The notes under the pieces: model-generated | What the model was told of the DNA's origin: nothing | What the model saw: the letters and a program-made list of their open reading frames with translations, nothing else | Databases searched by the model: none | Program-made: the position numbers and the translations under genes | Origin: Yuukianura sp. NJ FZ-2021 | Lineage: Eukaryota | NCBI GenBank assembly: GCA_046563655.1 | Contig: CM102289.1 | Coordinates: forward strand, 248,001 to 312,000 | Length of the DNA: 64,000 nt | Reading direction: 5' to 3' | Part shown: piece by piece, positions 31,481 to 61,470 of the stretch | Position numbering within the stretch: position 1 is the first letter of the stretch | Layout: every line of letters starts with the position of its first letter

Positions 31481-31483
31481 CTA

Positions 31484-32756
31484 ACAAATTTTTTAAGTTT
31501 ATTATTCTCTGTTAAGGTGCAAATTCACATTCGGAGACAAATTTTTTAAAGAATTTATTATTCTCTGTTAAGGTGTAAATTCACATTCGGAGACAAATTT
31601 TTTAAAGAATTTATTATTCTCTGTTAAGGTGTAAATTCACATTCGGAGACAAATTTTTTAAAGAATTTATTATTCTCTGTTAAGGTGTAAATTCACATTC
31701 GGAGACAAATTTTTTAAAGAATTTATTATTCTCTGTTAAGGTGTAAATTCACATTCGGAGACAAATTTTTTAAAGAATTTATTATTCTCTGTTAAGGTGT
31801 AAATTCACATTCGGAGACAAATTTTTTAAAGAATTTATTATTCTCTGTTAAGGTGTAAATTCACATTCGGAGACAAATTTTTTAAAGAATTTATTATTCT
31901 CTGTTAAGGTGTAAATTCACATTCGGAGACAAATTTTTTAAAGAATTTATTATTCTCTGTTAAGGTGTAAATTCACATTCGGAGACAAATTTTTTAAAGA
32001 ATTTATTATTCTCTGTTAAGGTGTAAATTCACATTCGGAGACAAATTTTTTTAAAGAATTTATTATTCTCTGTTAAGGTGTAAATTCACATTCGGAGACA
32101 AATTTTTTAAAGAATTTATTATTCTCTGTTAAGGTGTAAATTCACATTCGGAGACAAATTTTTTTAAAGAATTTATTATTCTCTGTTAAGGTGTAAATTC
32201 ACATTCGGAGACAATTTTTTTTAAAGAATTTATTATTCTCTGTTAAGGTGTAAATTCACATTCGGAGACAAATTTTTTAAAGAATTTATTATTCTCTGTT
32301 AAGGTGTAAATTCACATTCGGAGACAAATTTTTTAAAGAATTTATTATTCTCTGTTAAGGTGTAAATTCACATTCGGAGACAAATTTTTTAAAGAATTTA
32401 TTATTCTCTGTTAAGGTGTAAATTCACATTCGGAGACAAATTTTTTAAAGAATTTATTATTCTCTGTTAAGGTGTAAATTCACATTCGGAGACAAATTTT
32501 TTTAAAGAATTTATTATTCTCTGTTAAGGTGTAAATTCACATTCGGAGACAAATTTTTTAAAGAATTTATTATTCTCTGTTAAGGTGTAAATTCACATTC
32601 GGAGACAAATTTTTTAAAGAATTTATTATTCTCTGTTAAGGTGTAAATTCACATTCGGAGACAAATTTTTTAAAGAATTTATTATTCTCTGTTAAGGTGT
32701 AAATTCACATTCGGAGACAAATTTTTTAAAGAATTTATTATTCTCTGTTAAGGTGT
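31484..32756. repeat. Satellite D, 56-bp unit x ~22, near-perfect
   Basis: caaattttttaaagaatttattattctctgttaaggtgtaaattcacattcggaga; variation is almost only in T-run length. Confidence 0.97.
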
Positions 32757-33080
32757 ATTTTGTCGATATTTTACTGATTGGCTTTTTTCGTTTCGGATAT
32801 TTGGTCATTTTGAAGTTTTTCCCCCTCCCTAATACCGCGCCCAACTATCCCTCCCGTCGGCTGAGCTAAAAATAGTGAGGCTGAGTTCCTCCCACCCACA
32901 CTACTGAAAGTGCTGCGATGAGCATTGGGAAGAGGTGCCGTTGCGGAAGTGAAGATTCGATCACGTGGCCTGACAGTGAAGCAATGGCCAACTTCCGGAA
33001 GAAGAAGGATGAACTGGAGTTGTACATGGAGAGAATGAACGAAGTCAAATGTAAGTCAATAAACCGGTTGTAAACCGCAC

Positions 33081-38811: not shown

Positions 38812-39829
38812 ATGCGCAGTTTTAATCTTTTTAGTCTCTTGATTCTGTGTAGTTTGGGTGTGAAACATGGCCAACTTTCTAGAAACGTCAGTTCTACGCA
38901 TGTGCAGAAAGGCAGTTGGCGCATAACCAAACGTCTTCTTTGGATGAACAAAAAACGAAAGTTTGTGCTTCCAACCGGCACAATTTTGACACTGCAACCC
39001 AAGATTACTTTGCCAGTTTTTAGAAACAAACCGTTCAACGGTGGACTCAATTCGGACATTCAAGCTACGTGGTACTTTTACAGTAAGTAAATTATAGAAT
39101 ATATTATATATAATTAATTAAATAAAATGTGTTTTATGTTGGCAGTGTACTTTGACAAACTCGGAATGACCTCGGATGACCACATTTTCCCACTTCGGAT
39201 GCCTCCATTCTACCCCTTCGGTGACCTCATGACACGGAAAGACGATGAAGAAGAAACAAATAGCAGCGCAGACGATGAAGATCAAACAAATAACGTTGAA
39301 GAAGCGAAACACAACGTTGAAGAAATGTTCGGGAATTTTTCAAATTCAAATATTGGCGGGATTCCGACGTTTTCAAGACGAAGGAGGTCTGTGATGTCAC
39401 TTCCACCACCGGAAAACTTGCACGGAGGAGAGCGTGCCGTGATGCTGCCAAGTATCGAAAGACTACTGGCCTCCGTGGGATTTGAAGGGAAGGGGTGCCT
39501 TCTAAGGGCCATTTGCGAAGTACACGAATTCCCGCTAGACAGAGGGTACGGATTCTTCGGAGAAATTGTTACTCTATTTTTCAGGTAAGAGCATAAGCCT
39601 TAAAACGAATCGGGTTTACCCGATTAACACCTATAACTTAACATTCATCCAACTTTTAGTTAACTTTCGTTTTTCCCTTTACTTTAACAGTATTAGCAAG
39701 TCCCGGTATGCCAGGTCCCACATGCCGGAGTACTTGAAGGCAGAAGAAACTGGAAAAACTGGCGACTGCTCACCCTATCACAAGGCATGCACAAAATCTA
39801 TTTTTCATTACGTTGCAGACACATCATAG
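38812..39829 (+). CDS. Secreted DM4/DM12-family protein
   Basis: Signal peptide, KRKFVLPTG, RRRRS site, HGGERA...GFEGKGCLLRAICEVHE...GEIVTLFF, EYLKAE...GDCSPYHKAC; 3 exons. Confidence 0.85.
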
Positions 39830-40007
39830 CGACAGACAGACAATGTGGATTCATAGAGTAGCTTTCGGTGCTTAATCTTTACTTAAATTCGGAACTCCTG
39901 CAGTATTTATTAAACCGCAGTTTTTGATTAAGTAACACCAGTTTTAAATGCTCAGTGTTGTAAAACCGGAGTGTTTTAAGACCTCGATGTTTTAGAATCT
40001 GAGTGTT

Positions 40008-41727
40008 TTATCTGCCGAGGGCCTTGTTGACGGAATTTTTAGCGTTGACAAGCCCATAACCGAACTGATTGTTGGGATATTTGGAACCATCCAAGAAGCA
40101 AGTGATGAGTGGGGACTTGAGTCCTTCAGTGGTACATCCTTCAACGAGCCCCTTCCTCACTTGTTCCACAGTGATACTCTTCCTGGCCGCCCGCATGAGA
40201 CCTGCCACTGCAGCCACATGCGGTCCAGACATACTTGTGCCAGAGATCGTCTTGTAGGCAGTATCCGAAGTGTACCAGGCAGAGTAGACGTTGGTTCCAG
40301 GGCCAGATAGGTCAGGTTTAATCCATTTCGTGAACCCTTGGCACACAGGTCCCTTGCTACTGAAACTGGACAGGCGATTGTCTTCCTGGATTGACCCAAT
40401 TCCAATTGCCTCTTGTAAGTATGCGGGTGAGCCAGTCGTATAACACAGTGGACCACTGTTCCCGTTACTGAAAATCGGAACGATTCCGGCCGCAATCCAC
40501 GATCTTATCATTTCAAGGTACGTCGGTGTTTGTGCACTTCCTAAAACACCAAGCATTGCATCAAATTATAACTTTTCAGGGTTAAAATTAGGCTAATCAG
40601 CTGATTATTCATTATAATCACCTTAGTAACCAAGATTAATCAGGCAGGTTTAGCAACTTATAGATAGTTAATTGAAGACATACCTCCCCAGCTGTTGTTG
40701 GCCACATCCGGAGTTTTGGTGCAGTCAGGGTTGTTTCCCTTGGAATCCGTTGGGCAGATGATCCACTCTCCGCACCGTTTCAAATGTCGTTCTGCACACG
40801 AGTTGTCTGCGCATCCTTTGCAGGCAATCCATTTCAGCCCAGGGGCAACTCCAATTCCATTGCTTCCCACCATTGTACCTGAATAACATATAATTTTACG
40901 TCTAAAATGCACGGTAAAGTGTACAAACAAAAATGAAACAAATCGGTACGATACAGACGAAACGGTACGATACCGGAACATCCAACCACTTACCCATTGT
41001 GTGTGACCTGTAATAAAATAAATAAAATAATAAATAAACTAGAAGAAGAGATACAAATACTAAAATGAAACATTTGAGCTGACCCGTGACCGTTGTTGTC
41101 GTTCGGTAGATCCGAACCGGCACTCGGATCGAACCATGCATTTCCTCCGAGATAGCTGGCTCTCAAAGCCTCGTGAGTCCACCTCACTCCAGTGTCAATT
41201 CCAGCGATAATCGCTCCAGCTCCATTCGTTCCGCCCGGCATCGTCCAAGCATCATAAGCTTGGATCTTCCTCACTCCCCAAGTATAGTTGACACCATTGC
41301 CCTGCTTTTCCATTGGTTCATCCACTACTTCCTCCGACATGTCGTCATTGAACGTCGCAAACGTTTCATCAGCGATTCCAGCGATTAGGCTCCCGAACAG
41401 AGTCTGGACGCTGTTCAAAACGCCACTCGAAACGCCACTCACGAAAATCTCATTTGTCCCCCAAAAACTCTCGAATTTGATTCCAGTAAAGACGGATTGG
41501 GTGTTCAGAAAATTCAAAATGGGGGACTGCGATTTCGCAGCGTTGTTAATCAGCGCTTCACGCACCGCGGCGGCGCGTTCTCCTCGAGTGTTAAAGGACC
41601 GTGACTTGATGGAATTGAGGACAGAGTCTACTCCGCCGTTCATTCGGATAAAAACGTTACGCCCCTGACCATTACCAAAGTCTACTAGGACGACTAAAAG
41701 TACAGCGAAGAATTTCAAAAATTCCAT
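40008..41727 (-). CDS. Secreted subtilase (S8), bacillopeptidase F-like
   Basis: Signal peptide and propeptide; catalytic triad IDTG, NGHG/SHTMG, GTSMSGPHVA; oxyanion SNGNSG; WIACKGC and IKPDLSGPG; 14-nt microexon 41007-40994. Confidence 0.9.
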
Positions 41728-42425
41728 TTTCAAAATTTTAAAACTTCAGACAAAAAACTCAGAGAGGATGTAAAGGCTAACTTTGAAAAAAACCGTATTT
41801 ATAGTCACCAGCACACAGACGCTTCCGTCAAGTTCAATGCTGACGCTGGTAGTAAAACTATTGTCAACTTTTTAAAAATTTCCTTTTTTTGTGACACAAA
41901 AATTGAAATTTCACAGCGTCATAAGTTGATTAATTGAATTTCTGTTTTGAAAATGAACACTGAAAAACAGTCCACATTTGCGGTCAACACATAAATTTTG
42001 GCAACCGGTACCGGATCCATTCAGGTTTCGAAAAAGAGGAACAAATCAATTAATCATATGAAGGTTAAATAACAACGTAAGGAAAACCGTAAGCTACCAA
42101 TTGCGTCAACCGAAACTTTAAATTTTGAAATTTCAAAACTCAAAAAAACGAATTTTAATTGCTCAGGAGTTTGGATTAAAAATCACAAGCTTCAATTTTC
42201 TAACTCCGTTTCTCACTCATGAAAAGTCTTAAGGGTCGCAGACGTTCTGAAACTGGAGGACTAGAATTTGCATGATGCTGAAAATAGCGTGTGGCTTTTA
42301 GCTGATCCAATAAGTTATTACAACTAAACTTAATTATAATTAAAGTAAAATAATTAAGTTACTTAACTGAAATTAAGAAGAATTGAGTGGACACTGGTCA
42401 GTGGAAGCTAGAGTAGAGTGGAGTG

Positions 42426-45399
42426 TCAGTTGTCGTAGACTGGAAGTGGATGAGCCTCGGTGTTAAAGACGACTGAGGTCAAGTCGAAGATTGGTTTGTC
42501 ACTGAAGAGGAGGTAGAAGTACTTGAGTGTTTCTGCGAGGAAGAATGACTCCATCATGTCACGAGGTTGCGTGTCAAGGGGGTTGAGGACAGAGTTGATG
42601 GATGTGAATCCATAGGGTGTTCGCGTGTACTTCATGAAGGCTCCAAAGATTTCCCAGCCCCAATCTTGGTACATTTTGTCTCCAGTGATTTGGTGCAAGT
42701 ACCAAAGACTCTCCACTGTCTCTGGTCTTAGGAGATTGTGGGCGTCGTTAGGCTTCACGTAAAAATCTTCGTTTTTGTCATCCTGAAAAAAAAACAAAAG
42801 AAAATCAATCTTGGTGCCCGGAAAAATCAGCTAATCCTCAAATTTCACAGATCAGCTGATTCACAGATATTCACATATCAGATGATTCACATAAGCTGAA
42901 AAAAAAAATGAAAATAAGAACATTAGTTGAAAATCTTACGCCTATTGTGAAGTAAGTGATTTCTGGAGCGAGTCCAGTGGGTTGTCGGGTGTAAGTTAGA
43001 TAGCATGTATGAAGCAGTGCCTTGGCCAGGTCAAGGTGCCACTCAGGTAAACCGTGGGAGTAGCCCAGAGCAAGGGTTCCGGGTAAGTAGCAAACCAGAT
43101 GATCCTAAAATGATTCCAGTTTTGATATATTATATTTATATTTAAATTAACTGAACTATAGAAAAAGGAAGTGATTATCAGCTGACCATTTTAGGGCGAA
43201 ATGTCTGTCCATTGTTTTCCAGTTCTCCCAAGTAAGTGAGGTTGGACAGAGGAGTTCTTCTAAGCATTTGACTCCGCATGCCCTCCACAGCTTCCAAGTA
43301 ATCCTCCTTCAGACTGGCCAAATCGACACAAAATTGAGTAAAAGTGAAACGTTATGGTTAAAAAGTTGGTGATAACTTACAAATCGATTGTCTTCCCAGT
43401 TTGAATCCACTGTTTGAGGAGATACTCATAGTAAGAATCTCCACGAGCACCAAGAGTAACCACCGATGACAGGCGCAGATTTCCTAAAATCCATGTCAAA
43501 CGTTTTACATTTTTTTCAACCTTTAAAAAAAATATTTTTTGACTAATGACTTCGAAATCTTACCATCTTTTGGAGAAATGTGGATAGGGACGAGGCCGTG
43601 TCTCTTACGTTGACCATGTATGATTTTGGAAACATTCATGGCAGCATTCTGGAAAAAAAAAGAACAAAAAAATATCACAATGTTTTCTTTGAACATCATT
43701 AAAACTCGGATGCTGGAAGCATCACATACTGGAAGTAGCACAAGCTGAGTTGTTACCTCGAATGCTGGATTTCCAGTTTGACGAGAGAGGTCACGAAATT
43801 CCAGTTGGATTGTGGCCACTTCTGAGGTCGTGCTGTCTGGATTCCAATTGGGGCCTTGAGCCAGTTTCGTTCTTAAGTTCACATCGGAGTATGGAACTCC
43901 AGATCTATAATTAAAAAAAAACAATGTTGATTAGTACTTGCTTAAAAATCGGAGTTAATTAAGTACGAATGTTGCTTTACGGTGATTTGAATGCAACGAA
44001 CAGGAGACCTCCTAGTTCATCTGCCTTGTCTAGAAACATTTTGTCGCCGGACAAGTGAAAGGCACTTAGAAGTCCACCCACTACGCGAATCGTCGTCTCA
44101 AACAAGTTCACATTCTTCGTACTATGAAAAGTCAGCTGATCGTCTACCCAGTCACGAGCCTCGTAGAATTCTGGAAAAAAGTCAAACTAAGTTTAGTTGA
44201 AATCGATTACTAATCGTAGTTTAATGGTACCTTTGTTTAGTCCCATGATGAGCATGGTGTCCAGTGAGTCAACCAAGGTCAGCCCAAGGCCAAACCAGTT
44301 GTGCCTCTGAGCAGAAACTGACTTCAGATGGTCACTTCCCATGGAGTAGTTGCGATATCCGCCCCAAGCATGCAAGAATGCTTCCACCACCGCTTTTTGT
44401 CTCGCGTTTTCAGGTCCTGTGTAAGTATCAAATTCATATTCGTTTTAAAAACGTTTTTTAAGAAACGATGTTAAAAATAGTTGACAATTGAAGGTAATCG
44501 TTACCTGAGAACTTCATATTCTTCATCAACGTTTTCATTTTTATCACAGGTGAGCTGGAGAGTCCAGTCTTGGCCTTGGACTTCTTCCTCAGAGGAACGA
44601 CTGGATCATGAGAAATCACACTCCTGATGTTCTCCTTCACTTGCTCATCGATTCGACTCTGGAAATGACAAAAATCATTAACTTCCATTAAAATAACTTT
44701 ATTAACTTAAGTTTTCATTAATTAACTTTTACCTTGAGATCAAGTGCTGCCTTAACAGTAGTGGAAGAAACAGTCGTTGTGGTTGTGGAACTTGAAGTGA
44801 CCTTGACTTCAGGCTTATCGTCAAACTGATCCAGATCTTCCTCTTTCTTAGAATCGATGAAGTTGTCCACTGGCTCTTCGTCACCACCTAATTGATTATC
44901 CTTGGCTAAGGGTAACCCGTCCCAGGGAGCCTTAAGGGCCGGAGGTCCCTTGTCCATGTCCACTGGAACTGGATCATGATGGGCCAGAATCTGCGGCTCC
45001 TCTTGCTGAACCACATGATTACTATTCCGATCATCTGTTGGTGCACTACTGGATTGAATTACTTTGTTCTGCTGGAGTTTGGATTGTTGAAGGAAGTAGT
45101 CTGGTAAACTTCTGTTCGAACTTTGTTCAGGCATCCACGAAAAGGATGTTAGTATCACAACAAAAATTATTAGAACCATGATAATCATGAAGAGAATACT
45201 TTTCTGTGGCCGTGAAAGTCGGACCATACACTGCAAACACATAAATCATAAATCCTTGATTACTTCCTTTTAAAGTTCGATTACTCTTTGCATATTGGTA
45301 ACTCACTCTTCGTAGTAATCTGATCCTTGACTTGATTAAGGAAGTCGATGGATGACCCGTGTACTCCGGTACGTAAACTGCTGTGTAACTGTCCTCCAT
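42426..45399 (-). CDS. MAN1B1: ER mannosyl-oligosaccharide 1,2-alpha-mannosidase (GH47)
   Basis: Type II TM ([16 protein letters not shown]), stem region, [49 protein letters not shown]; many exons. Confidence 0.92.
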
Positions 45400-46451
45400 G
45401 TTCACAAATTGCGAATCGTAATTAAAACGTTAAATCAAACTTTTTAAGGAATTTCTCCTCCTGTTCCGGTGGAAGGTGGAGTTAGACGGTCGAATTCTGC
45501 AATGATACTCTGCTCCTTCCAACCATTATTCGGCGACCTTTGACCTGAAACATTAGAGAAAGTTATCGTATGATCAATGACTTAAAAATGGATTGAATTA
45601 ATCGATTGATGTTTACTTACTTTAGCAAGTTGAGTTAAAAGGAAGCCTAGTCAGTCACTACCGAACAAGAGCAAACCAACATACGAAACAGTTATGCAAT
45701 AACTGATTACGAGACAGATTTTTTGTTTTTTAATTTTTCAGTACTGCTTTCGCACATTTGTATTTGGGTTGAAGTAAGGCGGAATTACTCCCATTGGAAC
45801 CAAGCATTGTAATCATCCGCGTCATATTTGTAGCTACGCTCTAAGTGCAGCAAATGATTACACTATGAATACTTCAATTAGGTTTTCACAATTATTGTAA
45901 CTGCCAGATATGGTAGTTACAGAGTGGTTACAAAAATTGCAGTGATAACCATAATAGTGCAATTGGGGCAATGCTGTTTTACTTCAATCTACATTTGTCC
46001 CATGTGTGGGACACTAATCCTCAGAAACGGCAGATTTCTCAGTAACTTGCAAAATAAGTAGCGGAAGCTACTTTATAACCTTCTCTATGCCTGACAGTGT
46101 GTCTTTCGGTTTTTAATGTTAGCGGAATAATTTCAGAAGTTACCAATTTCAATCACGGTAGAACCATTCAACATTTCAATAAAAATTTCAACGGTGAAAC
46201 TAAAAAACATCAGTGTGTCTGTTCCGTTTAAAATTAAAACTTGCTGAAATTTTACATTTGAATCCGTAAAGGTCTGGACTTATTTTTCGAAAGAAATGCG
46301 GTTGTTTGTAATAAAAGTCAATTACAGGAAACTTCGGTTAAATTTTGACTCTTTTCTAGTTGATGCCAATTAAACCAATTACTTACTCGATATTTAAGGT
46401 GAGCACAACGCTCTGTCAATTTATAATTCACTTGTGGAACTTATAAGCAAA

Positions 46452-48146
46452 ATGGGAAAATTTGAGTTTGTCGTCATTTTGATTTTTGCATTAGGGCAAA
46501 ATGTTTTTGCCGAAGACTATTACAGCATTGAACTGGACGGAAAGTTTAGTCAAGACGGTGGACGGTACATCTCTGAAACTTTGATGGCGGCAAAAGCTGA
46601 ATTTAGGGAGCAAAAGAGAGAGGAGAGAGATGTGGAACCACGCCTTCTTCCTCCGATTACATTCATTGGCACGGTAACCCTCAGGACACCCAGATATGTC
46701 GCCGTAGTTGGGGTCAACTCGTCCTTTGAGTTTACGCAATTCTGGGTTGACCCTGACGAAAACGTCGAAAATGTCGACAGCAATCGGGTCAAAAGGGATT
46801 CGGAGCAAAAGGAATCGGCTCGACTCGGGTTTTACGGTCAATTTCAATTAGGCAAACGCAGGTCCGAAGTTCTCCGAGTCAAAATATACGTGGACGTTAC
46901 TCGCGAATCCGACAAATACATTCGGTAAATTTACTCAATTCTTTTCCGTAACCTTAGACTTTTATGTGATTTTGCGGTTCCAGTTCATAAGGGCTAAACC
47001 AAAAATGGGTACTGCAATAAGGGCTAATAAGAAGTAGCCCTTACTGAAGTGGCTCCTTATTTTTAGTCGTGTTTTAGTAGGTATTTTTTAGCCATTTTTG
47101 GAAAGCCCTTTTCGGTTTAGCCTTTATGAACTGCTGAGTAAATTTAACGTAAAATTTACTCGGCAAATTTACTAAAAATTTGTCTCCCGTAAAATTTTCA
47201 GACCGTAACTTTGCTTGGAAAGATTTTTTAACATTGCATAAATGCACTTAACAACATAATTTATCACTTGTAAATTTCATTTTAATTTAATTGATTATTA
47301 ATAATAACTATAATTAATTTTAATAATTATTATAATTAATTATTGATTTACTAATTTTTTGCACTATGTACATTTACGTACGCCGTAAATTTACCCGACA
47401 AAGTTTTGTTCAGAAGTGGCAATGATGTTTGCCACTTACTGTTGATTCAATTGCTGTTGATCTTTTTGAATTTCAGGCCCATTGACTCGTCAGAAATGGG
47501 CGACGTGAAAGACAAGCTGGAATTCGGATTCAAAGGGAAGCTGTCCGGCCCTTCTCGCAATGGAAAAGTAGAATCTGCATTGTTTGGCTTCAACGTAGGG
47601 GTCCAGTCCGAGGAAAAGGAGTCAACCAATCGGCTCAAACGACAATCCGATCAACAGATTTCGGATCAACAGGAGCAAGGACAATCCGATCAACTAAAAC
47701 CAGTTGTCAAAATCGATGGAGACTTTACCGTTGAGGAAGTGATGGGAAATGGAGGCAGGATGGTCACAGTTGACAAGGTCACGGGAGAAATTTCTTTTGA
47801 CACGACAATTCCCACTGAAAACACTTCGCCAAAAGACCTGTTTTACGCCAATGACGGAACACCTTCGTTCCAATATTACTTCGAAACTGCCGGGAATGTC
47901 ACGGGCAGTGTGGACGGAAAACCGGTTTTTGTCGAACCGCTTACCGTTTCGTTCCGGAACACGGTTGAGGAGGAACTTCGGCGGAAAAGAAACGCTGAAA
48001 AACCGGAGACGTTGGAACTGGAGTACGACGGCTACTTTTCCGGAGTATCCCGAACGAATCCGTCGGACAGAGATCGGTTCGGGATTTTGGCAAAACTCAA
48101 ACTCTGGGAAATCAGCACCGTTTATCACCCCAGAGACTACGAGTAG
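46452..48146 (+). CDS. Secreted multi-furin-site beta-hairpin protein, paralog 1 (2 exons)
   Basis: Signal MGKFEFVVILIFALGQNVFA; phase-2 intron 46925-47476; sites REER, RVKR, RLKR, RRKR. Confidence 0.85.
46981..47133. mobile_element. Small MITE-like inverted-repeat element in the intron of paralog 1
   Basis: cagttcataagggctaaaccaaaa ... ttttcggtttagcctttatgaactg; no clear TSD. Confidence 0.65.
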
Positions 48147-48593
48147 TCACATCCACGTGTGAAATTTGCTTTCAATTTAAAATCTTTGAAAGTTAAAATT
48201 TTTTGAAAATAAACTTTTTCGAATTCAAAATTTCTGATGTAATAAATAATTTTCAAGTGACATAAATTAAAGGGCTCAACCGTGTTCCAAATGTAGTATA
48301 ATATACTAATAGAATTTATTTCAGTAACGTGAGACTAAAAAAGTCGACGTTTTAAGAATTTTAAGGTTTAGTCGAAGTAGCTTTAATTAATATTTTACAT
48401 TTTAGGTGAAAACGCAATGTCTGGGTTTGTAAAGAAGTGTGGTTGCTTGTAATTCAAGTCAATTACAAAAAACTGCAGTTAATTCTTCAAATGTTTTCTA
48501 GTCAACGCCAATTGAACCAATTAACAATTCGATATTTAACGCGACCAAAATGCAGTTTCAATGTCTAAGTCACTTTTGGAGTTTGTAAGCAAA

Positions 48594-50011
48594 ATGGGAA
48601 AATTTGAGTTTGCCGTCATTTTGATTTTTGCCTTAAGGCAAAATGTTTTTGGCGAAGAATCGTACAGTATTGAGCTGGATGGAAAGTTTAGTCAAGACAG
48701 TGGGCCGTACATCACTGAAACTTTGATGGCCGCAAAAGCTGAAGTGAGAGAGCAAAAGCGAGATGTAGAACCACGCCCCCTTCCTCCCATTACATTCACT
48801 GGCACGGTCACTCTCAAGACTCCCGGATATGTCGCTGTAGTTGGGGTCAACTCAACGTTAGAATTTACGCCATTCTTGGTCCACACTGACGAAAACATCG
48901 ACAGCAATCGGGTCAAAAGGGATTCGGAGCAAAGGGGAACAGCTAGACTCGGATTTTACGCTCAATTTCAAATGAAAAAACGCAGTCCCGAAGTCGACAG
49001 AATCAAAATTTATTTGGACGTTACTCCAGAATCATACAACTTCATTCGGTAAATTTACTCACGAGGGAACATTCCCAAGCGGATGTCAAGTTTTTGGATT
49101 TTCAAAGGTCATATTCTGTATATGAACATTTTCTGCAGTAGTTTCCGTTGCCGGCGCCAAAAAAAGTATGCCCACCTGGGCTAATTTTTTTTTTGCGTTG
49201 GCAAACGAAAGTAATGCCGAAAATTTTCTTTCGACATGCAGAATATGACTGTATTTTTTAAGTTCAAAAACAGGGCATCTGGTTGGGAATGTTCCCTAGT
49301 CAGTTTTTTTTTTGTAAGGAATAAAAATACCTCATAAATGTGTTGTGCTAGTTAAATGCTAACGTAACTTTTGATCCAATTGTCGTTGACCTTTTTGCAT
49401 TTGCATTTAGACCCACCTCTGACGAACCCGTGACGCCCAGGATTGACTTTGGATTCAAAGGGAAGCTATCCGGTACTCTGCCCACTGGAGACGTCGAAAC
49501 GGCAATGTTTGGCGTTGATGTTGGTCTGGAAGAAAACCGGGTCAAACGGCAATCTGATCAACAGGTCATCAAGGTCGATGGAGAATTTAGGATGAATGAG
49601 TTGATGAGGTATGGGGGGAAAAGTGTTTCAGTTGACAAGGTCACGGGACAAATTTCTTTTGAAACAGCACCTTCCACTGACATCGCATCACCAAAAGTAC
49701 TGTTTTACGCCAATGACGGAAGGCCTGACTTCCAAAATTATTTTGAAACGGCCGGGAATGTGACGACCAAAATCGACGGGAGACCGATATTTGTAGAACC
49801 GCTTACCGTTTCGTTCCGAAACACGGTAGAGGAACTGCGGCGGAAAAGAAACGCTAAAGAACAGGAGTCATTTGAACTGGAGTACAACGGCAACTTGTCC
49901 ACGGTAACCTCAACGAATCCGAGGAACGGAGATCGGTTCGGAGTTTCGGCGAAACTCAAACTCTGGGAAATTAGCACCATTTATCTCCCCAGAGATTCCG
50001 ACGATGCCTAA
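48594..50011 (+). CDS. Secreted multi-furin-site beta-hairpin protein, paralog 2
   Basis: Phase-2 intron 49049-49410; sites EQKR, RVKR, RVKR, RRKR; closest to paralog 1. Confidence 0.85.
49064..49297. mobile_element. MITE-like inverted-repeat element in the intron of paralog 2
   Basis: agggaacattcccaagcggatg ... catctggttgggaatgttccct. Confidence 0.65.
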
Positions 50012-50373
50012 ATGTCACCAAAATTTCAATTTTTTGAAAAAGAAATTTTTATTAAATTCAAAATTTCTGATGCACCAAATTATTCTCAAGTGACATAAAT
50101 TAAAAGCCATCACCATGTTCAAAATTGTTTTTTTAATTAACATTGACATTGACAAATCCAGTTTCTGCGGTTTTTTTAAATGATGACTGATTTTTAAGTG
50201 GAAGTGCAAAGGTTCAAAACTTTTTGAAACGATTGATTGTCCAAATTGAGCTAATTGCAGGAAACTGTAATTAAAATGTTTACAGAATTTTAAATTTTTG
50301 GAATTAAGCAGATGAAGTGTTTTGCTATTTAGTGGGTGGCTTCCCTACTGCTATCAGTCATTCCTTGACAACC

Positions 50374-51680
50374 ATGGCTAAATTTCATTTTGCCGTGTTT
50401 TTGCTGTTTGCCGTTTTTGCTGAAAATATTTTTGGCCAAGCATGGGTAACTTACGAACTGGACGGGAAGTTCGGTCAACAAGTTGGGCCGTACATCACGG
50501 AATACCTAACAAAGGCCAGAGCTGACGTCCGGGAGTCCGAAAGAGCAAAGAGGGAAATAGATAGGATTCCTGACCTTCCTCCCATGAACTTTACTGGCAC
50601 AATAACGAGAAGGTCACGAGAAGAGGTCATTGTAATTGGGGTCAATGCAACTTTTACACTAACTGACATGCAATTTGAGTCAGAAGATGACGAATTCAAC
50701 AGAGTCAAGCGGGATTCGGACAAAACTATCCGATTTGTGTTCTACGGTCAATTTAAAGTAGATTCCAACCGACGAAACGGGAACGACGAAGTTCTGGCAG
50801 TCAAAATTTCCTTGGACTTGAAACATTTCTCACAATTAACTACTCCGTAAGAAAAAGTTTCAATTTCAAAAATTTGAAGAATTTTGTTTTTTGGAATATT
50901 TTTTTTGTTGACCCAAAAAATGTTGATCCATTGTAGCTTTTGAAAACAAACCAGTTCCCATTCGCCACAGCACAAGGATTCCTCCATCTTCCGCTATTTT
51001 GTTGATCCGATTTCTGTCGATTTTGTTGTTTCAGACTTCGCGAGGGTGAAGAAGTAAAATCTGGAATGGAAATTGGGTTCAAGGGAAAAATCACTTCTGG
51101 GAATGACCCCGACAGAAATCCATTCCTGCTTGACCTCAGTTTCGGTTTCGATGCGAATCGATCACGGGACCCGGATTTCCACGAGGACACTGAAACTAAT
51201 CGACAAAAACGTCAATCCCCTGAAAATCGGAAAGAAGTTTTAAACATCGACGGAGAATTGACGATTGACGAAACGGGATGGCGTGGCAGACATGTTGTGA
51301 CTGTTGGTGTCAAGGGAGAAGCATCACTTCAAAATGTTGTTGCCATAGAAACAGTTTCTCCAAAAGAATTGTTTTTTGCTGCCGATGATTATACGAATCA
51401 ACACTATTTTGAAACCCATGGCAATGTAACTGGAATATACAATGGTAAAGAGATTTTCGTTTTGCCGTTTGGCGCCAGTACTCGCACGACGACGGAACAA
51501 GTTCGGGAAAAACGAAACTCTCCGAACGAACTCGGCAGTTTCGGATTTGAATACGACGGTGTCGTTACCGAACGATACTCGCTTCGAACCCTCGTCACTT
51601 ACGGCATTTCCACAAAATTCGATTTCTGGGGAATCAGCGAAACACGAAGCTCTGACGAACCGAATTCAAATTCTAAATAA
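50374..51680 (+). CDS. Secreted multi-furin-site beta-hairpin protein, paralog 3
   Basis: Signal MAKFHFAVFLLFAVFAENIFG; intron 50847-51034; sites RAKR, RVKR, RQKR, REKR. Confidence 0.85.
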
Positions 51681-52141
51681 TACTATTCCTTTGCAAATTG
51701 TTCTTTTTTCGAAATAAAATTTGCAGGATGAAATTTTAATTTTTTTAAACAACTTTATTTTGAAACTGACAAGAAATTGACACAAACAGACAAACATTAA
51801 TTCATTTCATTTTAGTAATTCACTACGCATTACTATAAATTTCTGAATCCAGGATTTGTAATACAACAATTAGTAGGCTCAAAATTGTTTTTACAGATAA
51901 TCCAATTGGCAATGAAAAGTTTAGGTTCTGCGGTTTTTTAAACCAAAAATTTAAATTTTTAAATGCAACTAAAAAGATTCAAAAGTTTCAAACGATTGAC
52001 TGATCAAATTTAGCTAAATGGCAGGAAACTGTAATTAAGATTTCACAAAACTTAAAATTCTCAGAATTAAACCAATTAAGTTTTTTGCTATTTAGTGCCT
52101 GGCGTCTTTATTGTTTCCAGGCAGTCCTTGACGTATCAACT

Positions 52142-53475
52142 ATGGCTAAACTTCATTTTGCCGTGTTTTTGCTGTTTGCCGTTTTTGTTGAAAATGTTTT
52201 TGCTGAAGCAGAGGTGTCTTACGAACTTGAGGGGAAGTTCCGTTCAGAGGATGGAGACATGACGGAATTCTTTACCACGGCAAGAGCTGACTTCCGGGAG
52301 TCCGAAAGAGAAAAGCGGAAAGTTGAAGCGATTTCTGCAATTCCTCCGATGACTTTTACTGGCACAATAACGAGAAGGACACCGGGAGAAGTTTTTGTCT
52401 CTGGGGTCAACGCAACCTTTACAATAACTGACATGCAATTTGAGTCGGAAGATGAAGAATTCAACAGAGTCAAGCGCCATACCGACGACACGGTACGATT
52501 CGGCTTCTACGGTCAGTTTAAAGTAGATGACAACCGACGAAACAGCGATGACGAAGTTCTGGCGGTCAAAATTTCCTTAGACTCGAAAGAATTGTCACAC
52601 ATATCTACTCCGTAAGCAACAAAAATTCAATTTCAAAAATTTTAAACGTTGGTCTCTTACTAAACTTTGAGAGTGCGTAAAAAAGAGTCTGATAGCCCAA
52701 GGGATAGAGCGTCTCCCCGATTGGAGAGAAGTGGGTTCGAATCCAACTTGGTTCATTAATTTTTTTTTATACCGTAATCTTTTTTTCTCTCAAGCCAAGT
52801 GGCCCTATGTGTTGTTGATCCAATTGCTGTTGACTTTGTTGCAGATTTCACAAGGATGAAGAAGTAAAGAGAGCTGTGGAATTTGGATTCAAGGGAAAAA
52901 TTTCTCCAATTGACCCCGACAAAAATGGCAATCCACTCCTGCTTGACGTCAGTTTTGGTTTCGACGAAAATCGTGACTCCGACTACGAAGAAAACTGTGA
53001 AACTAATCGACGAAAACGTGAATCTCATCAAAAAAACAAAGCAGTTTTGAAAATCGACGGAGAGTTGACGATTGACGAAACGGGACGGCGTCGCAGAGAT
53101 GTTGTGACTGTTGGTGTCCAGGGAGAAGCGTCATTTGAAAATATCGTTGCTATAGAAACTGCTTCTCCGAAAGAGTTGTTTTTTGCTGCCAATGACTACC
53201 TGGATCAACATTATTTTGAAACCCATGGCAACATCACTGGGAAATACAATGATGAAGAAATTTTTGTTCTGCCGTTTGACGCCAGTACGCGTACGACGAC
53301 AGAACACGTTCGGAAAAAACGAAACTCTCCGAACGAACTCGGAAGTTTCGGACTTGAATACGACGGTGTCGTTACGGAACGATACTCACTCCGAACTCTC
53401 GTTACTTACGGCATTTCCATAAAATTTGATTTCTGGGGTATGAATCAAACACGAACCTCTGACGGAACGAATTAA
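52142..53475 (+). CDS. Secreted multi-furin-site beta-hairpin protein, paralog 4
   Basis: Intron 52612-52844; sites REKR, RVKR, RRKR, RKKR. Confidence 0.85.
52685..52768 (+). pseudogene. tRNA-like / tRNA-derived SINE copy in an intron
   Basis: A box tagcccaaggg, B box ggttcgaatcc, 3' cattaatttttttt tail similar to the 14986-15068 copy. Confidence 0.5.
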
Positions 53476-53829
53476 AATTTTAAATAATACATCTTTACAT
53501 TTTCTTTGTTTCGAAATAAAAAATTGCATGAATTCATTTTGAACATTTGTTTTAAAATTTGGTACAGGCAGGCAAGCATTTCAAATGGGTGTGTCTGTTT
53601 TCGGTTTTCAGCTTCTGTGTTTTTTTTTAATTTCAAAATTTAGATTTCTAAGTGCTAGTACAAAGGTTCAAATTTTGCAAAGGGTTGATTGTTCAAATTT
53701 AGCTAATTTCAGGAAGTTTCAATTAAAATGTTGACAAAATTTTTAATTTTCGGAATTAAACCAATTGAGTTTTCTGCTATTTAATGCGTAGCTTCACTAC
53801 TGTTTTCCAATCAGTCCTTGGAACTTGAA

Positions 53830-55113
53830 ATGGCAAAATTTGACTTTGCCGTGTTTTTGCTGTTTGCCTTTTTTGCTGTAAATGTTTTTGGTCAAGCCTG
53901 GGTGTCATACGAACTTGAGGGGAAGTTCCGACAGGAGAATGGGCCCAACATCACCGAACTCCTAACGACGGCCAGAGCTGATCTCCAGGAGTTCCAAAGA
54001 GCAAAGAGAGACGCAGTTCATGCAATTCCTGCGATGACCTTTACTGGGTCAATCACAAGAAGGTCACCGGGTGAGGTCACCGTTTCTGGGGTCAACGCAA
54101 CGTTAACGCTAACTGACATGCGGTTCGAGTTGGAGGGAAACGGAACGAACAGACTCAAGCGCGGTATTGACGAAACGGTACGAGTCGGATTCTACGGTCA
54201 GTTTAAGTTGCACGGTACCAGGAACAACGAAGTTCTGGCTGTCAAAATTTACCTGGACTTGAAACACTTATCACGCATAACAACTCCGTAAGTAAAAAAT
54301 TTCAATTTCAAATATTTTAAAAATTTTGAAAAACGAGGAGTTGTGGAGTCTGGGAACGAACGGTGCCATCCTTTCAGATTTTGTGCACAAAAGTGTTGAT
54401 CCGATTGCTGTTGATTTTGTTGTTGCAGAAGTCTTCGCGCTGATGAAGCAGTAGCAAGTAGCGTGGAATTTGGATTCAAGGGGAAAATTTGTCCAGGTGA
54501 CCTCTACACCAAGGTCAATCCGATTCTGCTTGACCTCAATTTTGGTTACGGTTCAAAGTGGTCGCCTAACCCCGGCTACTACTCAGACTTTGAAAGTAAT
54601 CGACAAAAACGTCAATCCCGTCAAAATCGGAAAGAAGTTTTGAAAATCGATGGAGAGTTGACGATTGATCAACCTTGGTGGAATGGCGGTAGAGATGTTG
54701 TGACAGTTGGTGTCCAGGGAGAAGTATCTCTTCAAAATATTGTTGCCATAACAACTGCTTCTCCAAAACAATTGTTTTATGCTGCCAATGACAACATGAG
54801 TCAACGCTATTTTGAAACCCATGGCAACATCACTGGAAAATACAATGGTCATCCCATTCTCAGTCTTCCGTTTGGCGCCAGTACGCGTTCGACGGTAGAA
54901 CGATTTCGGGAAAAACGAAACTCTCCGAACGAACTCGACAGTTTTGAACTTGAATACAACGGTGTCGTTACCGGACGATACTCGAAACGAACCGTCGTCA
55001 CTTACGGCATTTCCACAAAAGTCGATTTCTGGGGAATCAGCAAAACGCAAACCTCTGACGAAACGAATTCCAATATTAAATATATATATGATAAAATTTT
55101 CAAAAAACAATAA
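53830..55113 (+). CDS. Secreted multi-furin-site beta-hairpin protein, paralog 5
   Basis: Intron 54288-54428; sites RAKR, RLKR, RQKR, REKR. Confidence 0.85.
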
Positions 55114-55621
55114 TTGTTTTTTGATATTTTGACGTTGACACAGACACATGAAAATTTAAAATCCTTTTAGTAGTATGCATTTATGCATGCATTTGAAATT
55201 TTAGTTTTTCAAATTAAAAAAAATCTAACCACAATATGAAATGATTATTTTTTGCAATAGAACAATGCAACTGATTTTAGAAATCAAAGCAGTGTTTGTG
55301 TTGTCTCAAAAAGTTGGTTTTGAGATTTCTAAAAACAATTACGCTGTGCGTTTTGGTTTTTAGATTTTGGAAACCAAAATTTGAACGCAACCACGAAGTT
55401 GTTAATTTATCCCAAAATTTGTAATCTTTTGGTTTTTAGTCATTTTTTTTTGTAACCAACACATGAGAAAACCACAACTTTTAAAGTGATTTTACACTTT
55501 CCTTCTAAAGTGGTCACTGCAGTTGACTTTGTTCACTAGAATAAACACAATACCTCCAGTTCTAAAGTTTTTAGAAATTTTAAATTTCTCTTTTCAAAAA
55601 AAATATTTAAATTTTTAAAGA

Positions 55622-57940
55622 ATGGCTGTCAAATCATTTCATTTTTCAGACTACTGCCTCGTGCTACTGCTGATTTTGGTTGTAGAAAGCGGTTTGACTT
55701 CTGGTTCAACCACCGTGCCAGTGAAAATTAGGCAGACAAAATGTGACCCCGGTCAAGGTCAAGGTCAAGGTCAAGGTCATCTGGGGAACAACTCAATTCA
55801 TTTGTACATTCCCATGTCAGGAGTACAAAAAACCACAGTTACGTTCCACATTGAGTTCCAAATTCCCAAAGCAACGAAAATTCCAGGCGCAGAAAAACGT
55901 TTGCTCACAAAAAGTCAAAGTTTGGAAAATTTTTTGATCAGATCACAAAAATTTGAGCGTTCAGCAATTTCAAGTGAGGAGGGAAATTTTGAATTTCTTC
56001 CCGAACTTGAGTATCCAGTCGAACTGCCGGATACACCGACAGGTGAACATTTTGAACCGCTTTGGAATCTGCGCAGAAAAAGAGACGCAGAAACAAGTTC
56101 AGTTAAAGAGAAAATTGAAAAATCTTATCCGCAAGTTCCTGCCAGTTCTGTAGAATTGACCAACAATTCAACCGAATCGGGGCAAAGTGAGACAGAATCT
56201 GAAGACAAAAATTCAAAAACCGAAACGCTTGAAGAAACTCCCCCAAAACGACCATATCCGATTCGTCACCCACAAGCGGTAAAAGACGCTTCCGGAAAAA
56301 TCCGAGTGGATACGAGTACCACTAAGCCGAAAAAAACTAAAGCGCGGAAGCAGTGTACTTGTCCTCTCGGAAAACAAGGAAAAACTGAAAACAAAAATGG
56401 AAAAACCGAAACCCGAAATGGTCCGGACCAAGAATCCGGAAATTCCGAAACTCCGAATGGTGCAGAAAGTGCTGGTGGTGGAGGCGGTTTCCAAGGTTTT
56501 GTGAGCGTAGTTTCCGTCACTGCAACAAATTTAGCGGGAGCGGGCATTTTGGGTTACATGATTGTTCGGAAACTGGGCCATGTCAAGACACACATAGCCT
56601 CCCAAAATGGACAGAAACAAGGCTCAAAGGGGTCTGGGCAATATTACCATGCTAAAATTCTATTAATTTTGAATAATATATTAAAATATATGTTTTAAAT
56701 AATTTAATTCAGGACTCCTACGTTGGAAGTGGGACATAAGCCTGACACCGGTTCTGGTGGGAATGCTACCCTAGGAGGAGATGATGGAGGTACGCCTGTG
56801 GTACAACAAACGGTACCAGAAGAAGTCAAGCCACCCGTTGAGGAAAAGGTACCAGAAGAAGTTAAGCCACCCATTGAAGAACAAAAGGTACCAGAAGAAG
56901 TTAAACCACCCGTTGAGGAAAAGGTACCAGAAGAAGTTAAGCCACCCATTGAAGAACAAAAGGTACCAGAAGAAGTTAAACCACCCGTTGAGGAAAAGGT
57001 ACCAGAAGAAGTTAAGCCACCCATTGAAGAACAAAAGGTACCAGAAGAAGTTAAACCACCCGTTGAGGAAAAGGTACCAGAAGAAGTTAAGCCACCCATT
57101 GAAGAACAAAAGGTACCAGAAGAAGTTAAACCACCCGTTGAGGAAAAGGTACCAGAAGAAGTTAAGCCACCCATTGAAGAACAAAAGGTACCAGAAGAAG
57201 TTAAACCACCCGTTGAGGAAAAGGTACCAGAAGAAGTTAAACCACCCGTAGAGGAAAAGGTACCAGAAGAAGTTACACCACCCATTGAAGAACAAAAGGT
57301 AGCAGAAGAAGTTAAGCCACCGGTAGAGGAGCAAAAGGTACCAGAAGAAGTTAAACCACCCGTAGAAGAAAAGGTACCAGAAGAAGTTAAACCACCCGTA
57401 GAAGAAAAGGTACCAGAAGAAGTTAAACCACCCGTAGAGGAAAAGGTACCAGAAGAAGTTACACCACCCATTGAAGAACAAAAGGTACCAGAAGAAGTTA
57501 AGCCACCCAATGATGAACAAAAGAAACCTGATGATGTTGTGATGATGGTGGAAGAACATCAGCCGGAGCCGCCAAAACCTGATGATGTTGTGACGATGGT
57601 TGAAGAACATCAGGAGGAACCCAAGAAACCTGATGATGTTGTGATGATGGTTGAAGAACATCAGGAGGAACCCAAGAAACCTGATGATGTTGTGACGATG
57701 GTTGAAGAACATCAGCCGGAACCGCCAAAACCTGATGATGTTGTGATGATGGTGGAAGAGGACCATGAGGCACCGCCTAATGATGATGTTACTATGGTAG
57801 TTGAAGATGAGGGAGGGAGTGAGGAAGGTGATCGCTTCCACCCTGGTCGAGGACGCGGACGTGGGCATCATCTGGGGCCACTGCCAAGCATTCATCCTGG
57901 ACTCCACAGAGGGCGAGCAAGAGGATTTGGACGCCGTTAA
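55622..57940 (+). CDS. Signal-peptide protein with furin site, putative TM segment and long PEVK-like repeat tail
   Basis: Two ORFs joinable by a phase-2 intron (~56632-56712); LRRKR site; hydrophobic FVSVVSVTATNLAGAGILGYMIV; EEKVPEEVKPP repeats; Arg/Gly/His C-terminus. Confidence 0.7.
56812..57800 (+). repeat. Coding tandem repeats: alternating 36/39-bp units, then 51-bp units
   Basis: VPEEVKPPVEEK / VPEEVKPPIEEQK, then KPDDVV(M/T)MVEEHQ(PEPP/EEPK). Confidence 0.95.
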
Positions 57941-59661: not shown

Positions 59662-60846
59662 TCACAAAGCTTGCAAAATGCGAGTGACTAGGTTCAAAAC
59701 TGCCGTTAGAAGTGGCGTGGGCGACACTTCTCCAAGTAGTGCTTGAATTCCGTGCAAGCCTTCAAGCACATCTTTAGGAATGTACTTGCTCACTGGGGCA
59801 AGGAGTGCCAAAAGGAGTTCCAGCGGCTCAATTTCTACCCCGCACTGCAGAACGTCCACGTCAAAATATCTCAAGTGATCTACAGCTGTATGAGCTGTCG
59901 GAAATGCCGAGTCGGAGCAGTTCGGATCTTCGTAAGTCGAAGTACTGCAGTATTTCCCCGTACCGTTACCGGACACATTGTGAATCCAGAATTCGTTTTG
60001 ATGGTGGACGAAACCCAGAACGGCGGGAGCAATTTGCGGAGCAATGTCACCGCGGTTCACAACTCGAGCGATCGGCATGGCCAAACCGTTCATGTAGTTG
60101 GCCAACACTTTGTTGCCGGTACGCGGTGCTCCGTACGTGAACAACTTGAATTTGGCGGTACTCAAGTAGCCAGTGGTGAGTTGCTTGAATCTGAAGAGCA
60201 ACAGAGAGGCCATGGATCCACCCAGGGAGTGTCCGGTGATGACGACAGTAAAAGTCGGATTCTGCGCAAGCGCAGCTTCCAAAAGAGTCGTGCTCTGGTT
60301 AAGGATTGTTTTCGTTTCTTTGTTGAAGCCCAAGTGAACTCGCGCCCCGGGCGCGTTCGGTGCCTTTGCGTCGACCAGAATTGCCGTTGCGTCGTTGACT
60401 AGATTCGGAGCGTTGTGACTCCCACGCAAACTCAGGACGATTTCCTGTCTGCAACTGTCCACAACAATGAATGCTTTGACAGTATCATCCGAATTGTTAA
60501 AAACGGAGCGGACCTTGACACATCCAGGACTCTGGACACACCATGGACATGTCCATGACGCCAACGAAGAGAAGCAGTATGCTGCGCCTGCGTAGTGCAT
60601 GTAATAACGCACGTCAGCCTCCGGCGGTCGACTTAAAGCGTAGTTTCCAATTGGAGCAAACGTTGTTGAAACGTTTCCGACAAAAACTGGGCCAACTACG
60701 GCGTTTAACGCCTCTTCGGCCCAGCCTTGGAGACAACTTAGCAAATCTGTAGTGAAGAGAGAGCAAGCCAACACAGACGGCTGTATAGGAGTAGCTCCAA
60801 GGCAACAAGTTGCCAAGGCAACGGAAACCCAATGATGGAGTTCCAT
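59662..60846 (-). CDS. Secreted class 3 (fungal-type) triacylglycerol lipase, intronless
   Basis: YAGAAYC, WTCPWC, LSLRGS, VHLGF, TGHSLGG, TYGAPRTGN, RVVNRGDIAP, FVHHQNEFWI, EDPNCSDS, DHLRYF. Confidence 0.92.
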   Translation of the reverse strand: MELHHWVSVALATCCLGATPIQPSVLACSLFTTDLLSCLQGWAEEALNAVVGPVFVGNVSTTFAPIGNYALSRPPEADVRYYMHYAGAAYCFSSLASWTCPWCVQSPGCVKVRSVFNNSDDTVKAFIVVDSCRQEIVLSLRGSHNAPNLVNDATAILVDAKAPNAPGARVHLGFNKETKTILNQSTTLLEAALAQNPTFTVVITGHSLGGSMASLLLFRFKQLTTGYLSTAKFKLFTYGAPRTGNKVLANYMNGLAMPIARVVNRGDIAPQIAPAVLGFVHHQNEFWIHNVSGNGTGKYCSTSTYEDPNCSDSAFPTAHTAVDHLRYFDVDVLQCGVEIEPLELLLALLAPVSKYIPKDVLEGLHGIQALLGEVSPTPLLTAVLNLVTRILQAL

Positions 60847-61470
60847 TGTCAAGCGCTTTTTTAAAAAGTGAATTCCAAAGTTCTTTAGTTGAAACTTTTA
60901 TTACTTTTTTACTACTTTTTTACTACTTTTACTACGTTCCATTGTCCTTGTCGTTGAATGAGGAGATGGTTATGCGGGTATTGAGAGGTGCTAAGCTTTG
61001 CAGCTACCCAAACATGTTGCTGGGACACGTAGTTCCTTTAGAACATCCACAATATCCAATTCCTTGCTCAAGGACGTCAGCCTTTTTTGAAAACAAAAGA
61101 GTATTTGAAATATTTAACACAATGAGCATGACTCTGGATTTAACTGGAAGATAAAATTGTGGTGCTTACGGGAGCTCTGTCGTGGAAACAGCAAGCAACA
61201 GTTAATCCTGTACACCCTGACCCGTGGTCGCTGGAAAACTGTCCCCTTTTGTCTTTACATTGCTGATGAGTTGAACACTGCCGAGGAAAAAAACATTCGT
61301 GCTCTATTTTCCATCCGCTGTATATGTAAATACCGTAAACATTCTAATAAAGGCGGATTTAAACGTCTGTTTTCAACGTCGGCGGTTAACGTTGAGACCT
61401 TAATAAACGCCTGGGCCGTTATTAGAAGTTTTACGGTATATAATAAATCAGGCAACAAATTGCAAAGTAT

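Follow-up and report, generated by a model that had tools for sequence, protein, structure and literature searches.

Nematode polyprotein allergens of the ABA-1 type are secreted as polyproteins of tandem units, which convertases cut at R-x-K/R-R into helical lipid binders of ~130 amino acids (aa) with near-identical sequences. R-x-K/R-R is the consensus of furin-type proprotein convertases. In arthropods, secreted precursors that furin cuts into multiple products are documented for Drosophila Baramicin A and for Attacin C (PMC8423362). That source describes Baramicin A, Attacin C/MPAC, and the apidaecin-type precursors as having R-x-[KR]-R furin motifs that part the products, partly repeated units, and duplication of the locus (PMC8423362). 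Among the fungal KEX2-processed repeat proteins (KEPs) are Candida Ece1/candidalysin and Rep1 of Ustilago maydis; the Rep1 peptides form amyloid-like fibrils. According to the KEP papers (PMC9769878; PMC6339444), a secreted precursor with repeats is processed at KR-type sites by a protease of the kexin/furin family, and the released pieces of Rep1 self-assemble to beta-rich fibrils. Here we describe an array of five tandem genes, G1 to G5, in a stretch of 64,000 nucleotides (nt) of Yuukianura sp. NJ FZ-2021 (assembly GCA_046563655.1, contig CM102289.1, positions 248,001 to 312,000; hereafter the window). On balance, and by a modest degree of confidence, we take G1-G5 to be lineage-restricted secreted proproteins that undergo furin-type cutting into five pieces, perhaps forming one beta-sheet assembly.

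The proposal shares several features with these systems. As in Baramicin A, Attacin C/MPAC, and the apidaecin-type precursors, R-x-[KR]-R motifs would part the products, units are partly repeated, and the locus is duplicated. In contrast to Baramicin A and Attacin C, with which no sequence or Pfam kinship was detected, the predicted units are 33-112 aa long, strand-rich, and mostly acidic rather than short peptides, and their cleavage is a prediction. An earlier note on this DNA, made from the sequence alone, had proposed a precursor cut into beta-hairpin fragments that assemble after secretion, and Rep1 is the described model nearest to that idea. However, KEPs are fungal and carry short near-identical repeats, whereas G1-G5 lie in an animal-like genome and have long, highly diverged repeats with sites in 4/6 linkers. 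Compared with the nematode polyprotein allergens (ABA-1/DVA-1), the models of G1-G5 are almost all strand with one helix, and no family profile in Pfam matched. G1-G5 thus appear to be a member of none of the three groups (Baramicin/Attacin, KEPs, nematode polyprotein allergens).

Gene models and divergence of the array

The array occupies 46452-55113 on the + strand, from the G1 ATG at 46452 to the last base of the G5 stop codon at 55113. Positions are those of the window, and the strand is + for the array unless noted. Ten + strand open reading frames (ORFs; 46398-55113) pair up as five intact two-exon genes encoding 351-380 aa. The predicted exons are as follows.

46452..46924, +, G1 exon 1, ATG to phase-2 donor
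47477..48146, +, G1 exon 2, to TAG stop (G1, 380 aa in total)
48594..49048, +, G2 exon 1, predicted gene model
49411..50011, +, G2 exon 2 (G2, 351 aa in total)
50374..50846, +, G3 exon 1, predicted gene model
51035..51680, +, G3 exon 2 (G3, 372 aa in total)
52142..52611, +, G4 exon 1, predicted gene model
52845..53475, +, G4 exon 2 (G4, 366 aa in total)
53830..54287, +, G5 exon 1, predicted gene model
54429..55113, +, G5 exon 2 (G5, 380 aa in total)

Exon 1 ends in phase 2 (two bases into a codon) and is followed by a GTAA donor in 5/5 genes. The phase-2 intron lies at the same aligned codon in G1-G5, and its 3' end is a pyrimidine-rich CAG or TAG. Other acceptors would also stay in frame, and those chosen combine the best polypyrimidine tract with agreement with the paralogue alignment. 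The introns are 141-552 nt long, contain stops in all three frames, and have a GC content of 30-38%, against 44-48% in the coding sequence (CDS). The introns resemble one another much less than the exons do; between G3 and G4, identity is 61% in the intron and 83% in the CDS.

A TATTTA[AG] box is found 48-61 nt 5' of the ATG in all five genes, with CCAATT-like boxes upstream. The TATA-like boxes, all identified as sequence motifs, are listed below.

46391..46397, +, TATA-like box of G1, TATTTAA
48533..48539, +, TATA-like box of G2
50326..50332, +, TATA-like box of G3, TATTTAG
52089..52095, +, TATA-like box of G4, TATTTAG
53778..53784, +, TATA-like box of G5

A poly(A) signal (A[AT]TAAA) follows 33-100 nt 3' of the stop in each gene, and the intergenic spacers in the array measure 354-461 nt. 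Since every gene has its own TATTTA box and its own poly(A) signal, G1-G5 would be five separate transcription units. No extra copy of the family was found elsewhere in the window by tblastn, in which only 3 of the 57 matches fell outside the array, all with E >= 0.021.

The paralogues have diverged considerably. Identity to G3 is 44-69% for the exon 1 products and 38-74% for the exon 2 products, and the paralogue tree has two groups, (G1,G2) and (G5,(G3,G4)). The ratio of nonsynonymous to synonymous substitution rates (dN/dS, Nei-Gojobori) is 0.25-0.51 in 10/10 paralogue pairs, at dS of 0.39-2.3. We judge G1-G5 to be old, intact genes under moderate purifying selection. The earlier note had described five two-exon genes with a common phase-2 intron as a tandem family, and both parts of that description agree with the gene models and with the intactness and dN/dS of the paralogues. 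The coordinates that it gave for the array are exact.

Protein features and internal repeats

In 5/5 paralogues the N-terminus is a hydrophobic stretch of ~20 aa, as it also is in L001, a homologue from a metagenomic contig that is described below. This hydrophobic N-terminus points to a signal peptide in G1-G5. Two N-x-S/T sequons, GVN[AS][ST] and GN[VI]T, are kept in 5/5 paralogues, the second also in L001. The proteins contain very few Cys residues (0, 0, 0, 1, and 1 in G1-G5).

Each protein consists of about seven units of ~50 residues, each with a strand motif of the form [FILVMYW]x[FILVMYWT]xGx[FILVMYW] (φxφxGxφ). The motif occurs 7, 7, 7, 7, and 8 times in G1-G5 and 6 times in L001, against a mean of 0.75-1.25 in shuffled sequences, and 0/2000 shuffles reached the observed copy count. 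The G3 copies begin at residues 27, 71, 121, 171, 227, 283, and 329 and are thus 44-56 aa apart. Windows of beta-amphipathic character are about twice as frequent as in shuffles (38 vs 17 ± 8). A conserved basic motif is present in 4/6 inter-unit linkers. Among the units, U1 and U3 (residues 61-113 and 161-217), each of which comprises a hairpin, an acidic linker, and N-R-x-K-R, align with an hhalign probability of 84% (E 7.6e-6, score 28.9), and the maximum score of 30 column-shuffled controls was 11.1. The second-best pair, U1/U4, reached 15%, and the other 19/21 pairs <= 8.4%.

Four conserved basic sites

Furin-type motifs (Rx[KR]R) occur 3, 3, 4, 5, and 4 times in G1-G5, where shuffles give a mean of 0.21-0.27 (P <= 0.003), which is a more than tenfold enrichment. 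Four sites are shared among the paralogues and correspond to residues 57-60, 110-113, 214-217, and 315-318 of G3. All of the following are sequence motifs.

46617..46628, +, G1 site 1, REER
46785..46796, +, G1 site 2, RVKR
47631..47642, +, G1 site 3, RLKR
47979..47990, +, G1 site 4, RRKR
48750..48761, +, G2 site 1, EQKR
48909..48920, +, G2 site 2, RVKR
49538..49549, +, G2 site 3, RVKR
49838..49849, +, G2 site 4, RRKR
50542..50553, +, G3 site 1, RAKR
50701..50712, +, G3 site 2, RVKR
51201..51212, +, G3 site 3, RQKR
51504..51515, +, G3 site 4, REKR
52307..52318, +, G4 site 1, REKR
52466..52477, +, G4 site 2, RVKR
53008..53019, +, G4 site 3, RRKR
53311..53322, +, G4 site 4, RKKR
53998..54009, +, G5 site 1, RAKR
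54151..54162, +, G5 site 2, RLKR
54601..54612, +, G5 site 3, RQKR
54907..54918, +, G5 site 4, REKR

Conservation of the sites was counted over six full-length sequences, G1-G5 and L001. The P1 Arg is present in 24/24 site cells (4 sites in six sequences). The P4 Arg is kept in 6/6 sequences at sites 2, 3, and 4 and in 5/6 at site 1, and the P2 Lys in 6/6 at sites 2 and 3 and in 5/6 at site 4. The mean share of the top residue is 0.67-0.90 in the P5-P1 columns, compared with 0.22-0.49 in 24 flanking columns, and 21-62 of the 144 flanking cells are gaps. A basic motif that hardly varies, set in a spacer of variable sequence with many indels, is what processing sites usually look like.

Most of what the earlier note had said about the proteins can be recognized in these data. 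It had reported few or no Cys, about seven alternating hydrophobic repeats with a central Gly (7-8 φxφxGxφ copies here, vs ~1 in shuffles), and four basic sites that stay at fixed positions while their flanks diverge, with REER in G1 and EQKR in G2 at the first site. The sites are kept even in L001, which is only ~30% identical.

Predicted fragments and structure models

Cutting at the four sites would give five fragments which, after trimming of the C-terminal basic residues, measure 33-37, 49-54, 87-102, 96-112, and 50-64 aa across the five paralogues. The predicted fragments are mostly acidic, with isoelectric points (pI) of 4.1-5.6 in G1-G4 except for one fragment, and three near-neutral fragments in G5. 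They are also hydrophilic, with a grand average of hydropathy (GRAVY) of about 0 to -1.2. Acidic, hydrophilic fragments of this kind would sit poorly with a membrane pore.

AlphaFold2 models were made exon by exon from alignments of only 6-8 sequences. The exon 1 model has a mean predicted local distance difference test score (pLDDT) of 59.0 and a predicted template modeling score (pTM) of 0.50; the values for exon 2 are 47.9 and 0.41. Despite their low confidence, the two models are consistent in secondary structure. In the exon 1 model, the signal peptide is followed by a strand (21-34), a helix (41-58), and hairpins at 71-102 and 118-149. The exon 2 model has hairpins at 10-39, 67-107, 124-150, and 169-205 (exon numbering), which makes six long hairpins together with exon 1. 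Sites 2, 3, and 4 are coil with pLDDT below 50 and lie between predicted hairpins, and site 1 is at the end of the helix. The predominance of strands, another claim of the earlier note, recurs in both low-confidence models. Its five-fragment precursor fared differently in its two parts. The four conserved processing-like sites speak for five pieces, but in these low-confidence models the pieces are not five single hairpins. Instead, the modeled products would comprise a strand and helix, followed by one, two, two, and one hairpins.

The exon 1 model was compared with 48,161 chains by VIA-align and resembled generic meander barrels and beta-wraps, with a best Z of 6.8, although matches at Z < 8 are below the level that the tool itself calls meaningful. 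The nearest neighbors were 8-strand outer membrane protein (OMP) barrels and YceI (Z 6.4-6.8), followed by the TULIP-type lipid binders Der p 7/JHBP (Z 5.2-6.1, root mean square deviation (rmsd) 4.7-5.6 Å). Over this whole set (Z 6.8-5.2), 99-132 residues were aligned at an rmsd of 3.2-5.6 Å. Such scores are common for unrelated models, the exon 1 model counted the signal peptide as a strand, and there was no Pfam match to JHBP. For the exon 2 model, VIA-align gave nothing above Z 3.9 against the same chains. Foldseek on the Protein Data Bank (PDB) gave nothing at E <= 0.001. No chain of the aerolysin/ETX-MTX2 type was among the listed structural matches of these low-confidence models, and none matched in Pfam.

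Family searches and relatives

Searches for known families were run on unspliced translations, exon by exon. With all ten exon products, Pfam at E <= 1 returned two noise matches only, DUF1685 (E 0.22) and DUF1411 (E 0.063). PDB sequence profiles with both exon alignments returned one chance match each at E <= 10. The best ESM Atlas score for G3 exon 2 was 0.80 to phage clusters, with a recognition of 1117, which is below the informative range. The earlier note had recognized no family, and neither Pfam, PDB profiles, ESM Atlas, VIA-align, nor Foldseek gives a confident match.

Distant relatives were found among metagenomic proteins. The five exon 2 products were combined into a profile, which gave six matches at E <= 0.001 when searched against 1.84 billion representative proteins. 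Three of them are real relatives, P0003 (3.4e-17), P0004 (2.3e-14), and P0005 (6.5e-7), all singletons from metagenome collections. The remaining three, P0006-P0008 (E ~2e-4), are repetitive proteins of 735-940 aa matched over 32-54 positions and were set aside as spurious. Word-indexed searches returned nothing with query A1 and only metagenomic proteins (P0003, P0004, P0005, and P0009) with queries A3 and A4; their sole addition was an exon 1 product from the contig of P0003. A scan of metagenome contigs matched 60 pattern stretches and confirmed one locus.

The contig of P0003 (L001, 1602 nt) carries a complete homologue that is about 26-36% identical to the paralogues. Its two exons correspond to those of the paralogues, and its intron, also of phase 2, falls in the same codon (donor CG|GTAAGC, acceptor TTCAG|). 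Basic motifs are present at all four positions (RSKR/RESR, RPKR, NRFKR, and KRQGR). P0004, which covers exon 2 only, reads RRRR at the third site and REER at the fourth. The shared intron position in L001 may serve as the best stand-in at hand for transcript support of the predicted splicing. Judged from these searches, the protein family appears to be lineage-restricted, previously undescribed, and very narrowly distributed.

Proposed processing model and alternative explanations

In the proposed mechanism, an N-terminal signal peptide would bring the protein into the secretory pathway, as the hydrophobic N-terminus and the two conserved sequons suggest. A furin-type convertase of the late secretory pathway would then cut after the R-x-K/R-R motifs, and cutting would yield five mostly acidic, beta-rich polypeptides. 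As a guess for the last step, the pieces might stay together or re-associate as one extracellular beta-sheet assembly instead of acting as free small peptides. The acidity of the pieces, and a chain that is conserved and rich in strands along its whole length, lead us to favor such an associated assembly over a membrane pore or free peptides of the cationic type. Given the moderate purifying selection and the tandem expansion, the proteins might, as a guess, serve outside the cell as effectors or matrix components, for example as defense, surface, or secretion material. A more specific version holds that G1-G5 are the animal counterpart of fungal Rep1. The acidic hairpin modules, made as a single chain and separated by a convertase, would assemble extracellularly as a hetero-oligomeric beta-barrel or a cross-beta fiber, forming a structural, adhesive, or defensive material with a fold without known relatives. 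We regard this version as unlikely.

Several points weigh against cutting and assembly. Both structure models are of low confidence, which makes the claims about hairpins and exposed loops soft, and clear internal homology is seen in 1/21 unit pairs only. Site 1 is weaker than the others (REER in G1, EQKR in G2) and lies at the end of a predicted helix. There is no cognate convertase within the 64-kb window. The splicing of G1-G5 and the cleavage of their precursors are both read from the DNA sequence, and the conserved basic loops could bind a partner instead of being cut.

The last point leads to an uncut secreted single-domain beta protein, a barrel or sheet of 13-14 strands or a seven-bladed propeller-like fold, whose basic surface loops bind an anionic ligand (glycosaminoglycan, phospholipid, or mineral). 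The seven regular repeats, 44-56 aa apart, and the strands throughout both exons in the models would suit such a protein. Not only the sites but also strands and hairpins are conserved, so that the whole chain looks structured, and the exon 1 model weakly resembles meander barrels and lipid binders (Z 5.2-6.8). These fold matches are, however, below the meaningful level of the tool (Z < 8), and what is kept at the sites is the precise convertase signature (Arg at P4 and P1, Lys at P2), not mere positive charge. Their flanks are indel-rich spacers, and furin normally cuts secretory proteins wherever an R-x-K-R is exposed. We consider a single uncut domain rather unlikely. If the chain is cut, the products may instead act alone, as in a 'protein operon' like Baramicin, whose precursor frees independent host-defense peptides or proteins. 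The architecture of tandem related units between furin sites recalls Baramicin A, and the tandem gene expansion with fairly fast divergence would also be expected. Yet 19/20 fragments in G1-G4 are acidic, three in G5 are near-neutral, and strongly cationic ones are absent. Only one pair of the markedly unequal units is clearly homologous, and Pfam shows no likeness to known antimicrobial families, so this reading seems to us distinctly unlikely.

A neuroendocrine origin as a prohormone- or granin-like protein is very unlikely in our view. It would make G1-G5 acidic secretory-granule precursors that PC1/3- or PC2-type convertases cut at dibasic sites into signaling peptides, and the predicted signal peptide, acidic fragments, hydrophilic composition, and multiple dibasic sites would be in keeping with that. 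However, a Gly before the basic motif, and hence an amidation signal, is found nowhere in these proteins. With 33-112 aa the fragments are long, and conservation extends over all of each fragment instead of being confined to short cores in variable spacers. Five diverging tandem paralogues with dN/dS of 0.25-0.51 would be unusual for hormones. Granins are disordered, in contrast to the strand-rich models. That the ORF pairs are silent, being artefacts of gene modeling or pseudogenes in decay, is hardly credible. In favor of this view, the sequencing runs listed as containing the stretch are four DNA runs of one study and no RNA run. Against silence, 10/10 ORFs are intact, dN/dS is below 0.51 in 10/10 pairs at dS up to 2.3, and the promoter-like boxes and poly(A) signals are conserved. 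Moreover, the same exon-intron structure is found in the ~30%-identical homologue L001, which comes from another source.

Surroundings of the array

The window has a GC content of ~40% and genes with short introns, and Rfam found no family in it. Located 4.7 kb upstream of the array, the gene at 39992-41745 (- strand) has three exons and encodes a secreted serine protease of family S8, with a signal peptide and the motifs DTG, HGT, NSWGG, and SGTSMSGP. Its catalytic-Ser exon best matches subtilisin, aqualysin, proteinase K, and Tk-subtilisin chains (E 1.7e-18 to 1e-8), and the 60 matches listed include neither a kexin nor a furin chain. This neighbor was rejected as the processing enzyme, being of the subtilisin/aqualysin/proteinase K type and not of the kexin/furin type. 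Its position next to putative convertase substrates looks coincidental. Between this gene and the array, a multi-exon gene at 42426-45245 (- strand) encodes a GH47 alpha-mannosidase (Pfam Glyco_hydro_47, E 2.4e-49 on one exon).

Downstream of the array, 55619-57937 (+ strand) holds a membrane protein gene with an ORF whose product starts like a signal peptide, contains RRKR, and has a hydrophobic segment at the C-terminus. A second ORF is built from a 36-nt unit in ~19 copies (alternatively, a 75-nt unit in 9 copies) that encodes the PEVK-like VPEEVKPP[VI]EE(Q)K, and 5 copies of a 51-nt unit follow. Neither ORF matched a Pfam family. Between 56 and 58 kb the AT skew is 0.35, which the PEVK-like repeat explains. 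Next comes a class 3 lipase encoded by one ORF at 59662-60897 (- strand; Lipase_3, E 1.3e-28), with its nearest ESM Atlas clusters in Zoopagomycota and Nematoda.

On the other side, an ORF at 39118-39585 (+ strand) has a DM4_12 domain (PF07841, E 2.7e-10), which is known mainly from arthropod proteins and so hints at an arthropod. Insect examples are on record (PMC12825958). Ubiquitin-specific protease exons are located at 36292-37120 (+ strand; zf-UBP E 1.6e-6, UCH E 2.5e-9). The ORF at 34908-35579 (- strand) matches the helix-turn-helix (HTH) of Tc3-type transposases (E 2.4e-6) and the DUF4817 HTH (E 0.0003) and is probably a Tc1/mariner-like remnant. AT-rich satellite arrays fill 28969-32757, in a low-GC trough of the window, with units of 101/198 nt (6.4 copies), 55 nt (29.6 copies), 63 nt (3.5 copies), and 56 nt (22.7 copies; 98% matches). 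A run of long ORFs at 15800-27000 (+ strand), for example 23379-24428 (349 aa), matched no Pfam family and has a strongly negative GC skew. Within the run, 18793-18938 is a coding-looking tandem repeat with a 39-nt unit and 100% matches, and the whole run may be one large unannotated gene. A RING-finger ORF is present at 6077-6487 (- strand).

Implications

If the four sites are not cut, G1-G5 would be just another lineage-specific secreted family. If the cuts are real, G1-G5 would represent a new protein family, probably with a new fold, in which the convertase polyprotein strategy is applied to long beta-hairpin modules instead of short peptides. Descriptions of this strategy cover repellents of fungi, immune peptides of insects, and lipid binders of nematodes, and modules of this kind are not among them. 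The near absence of the family from public protein space marks an under-sampled animal lineage. With five paralogues and four sites, the array would offer a compact system for how cleavage controls the assembly of a beta-rich extracellular protein.

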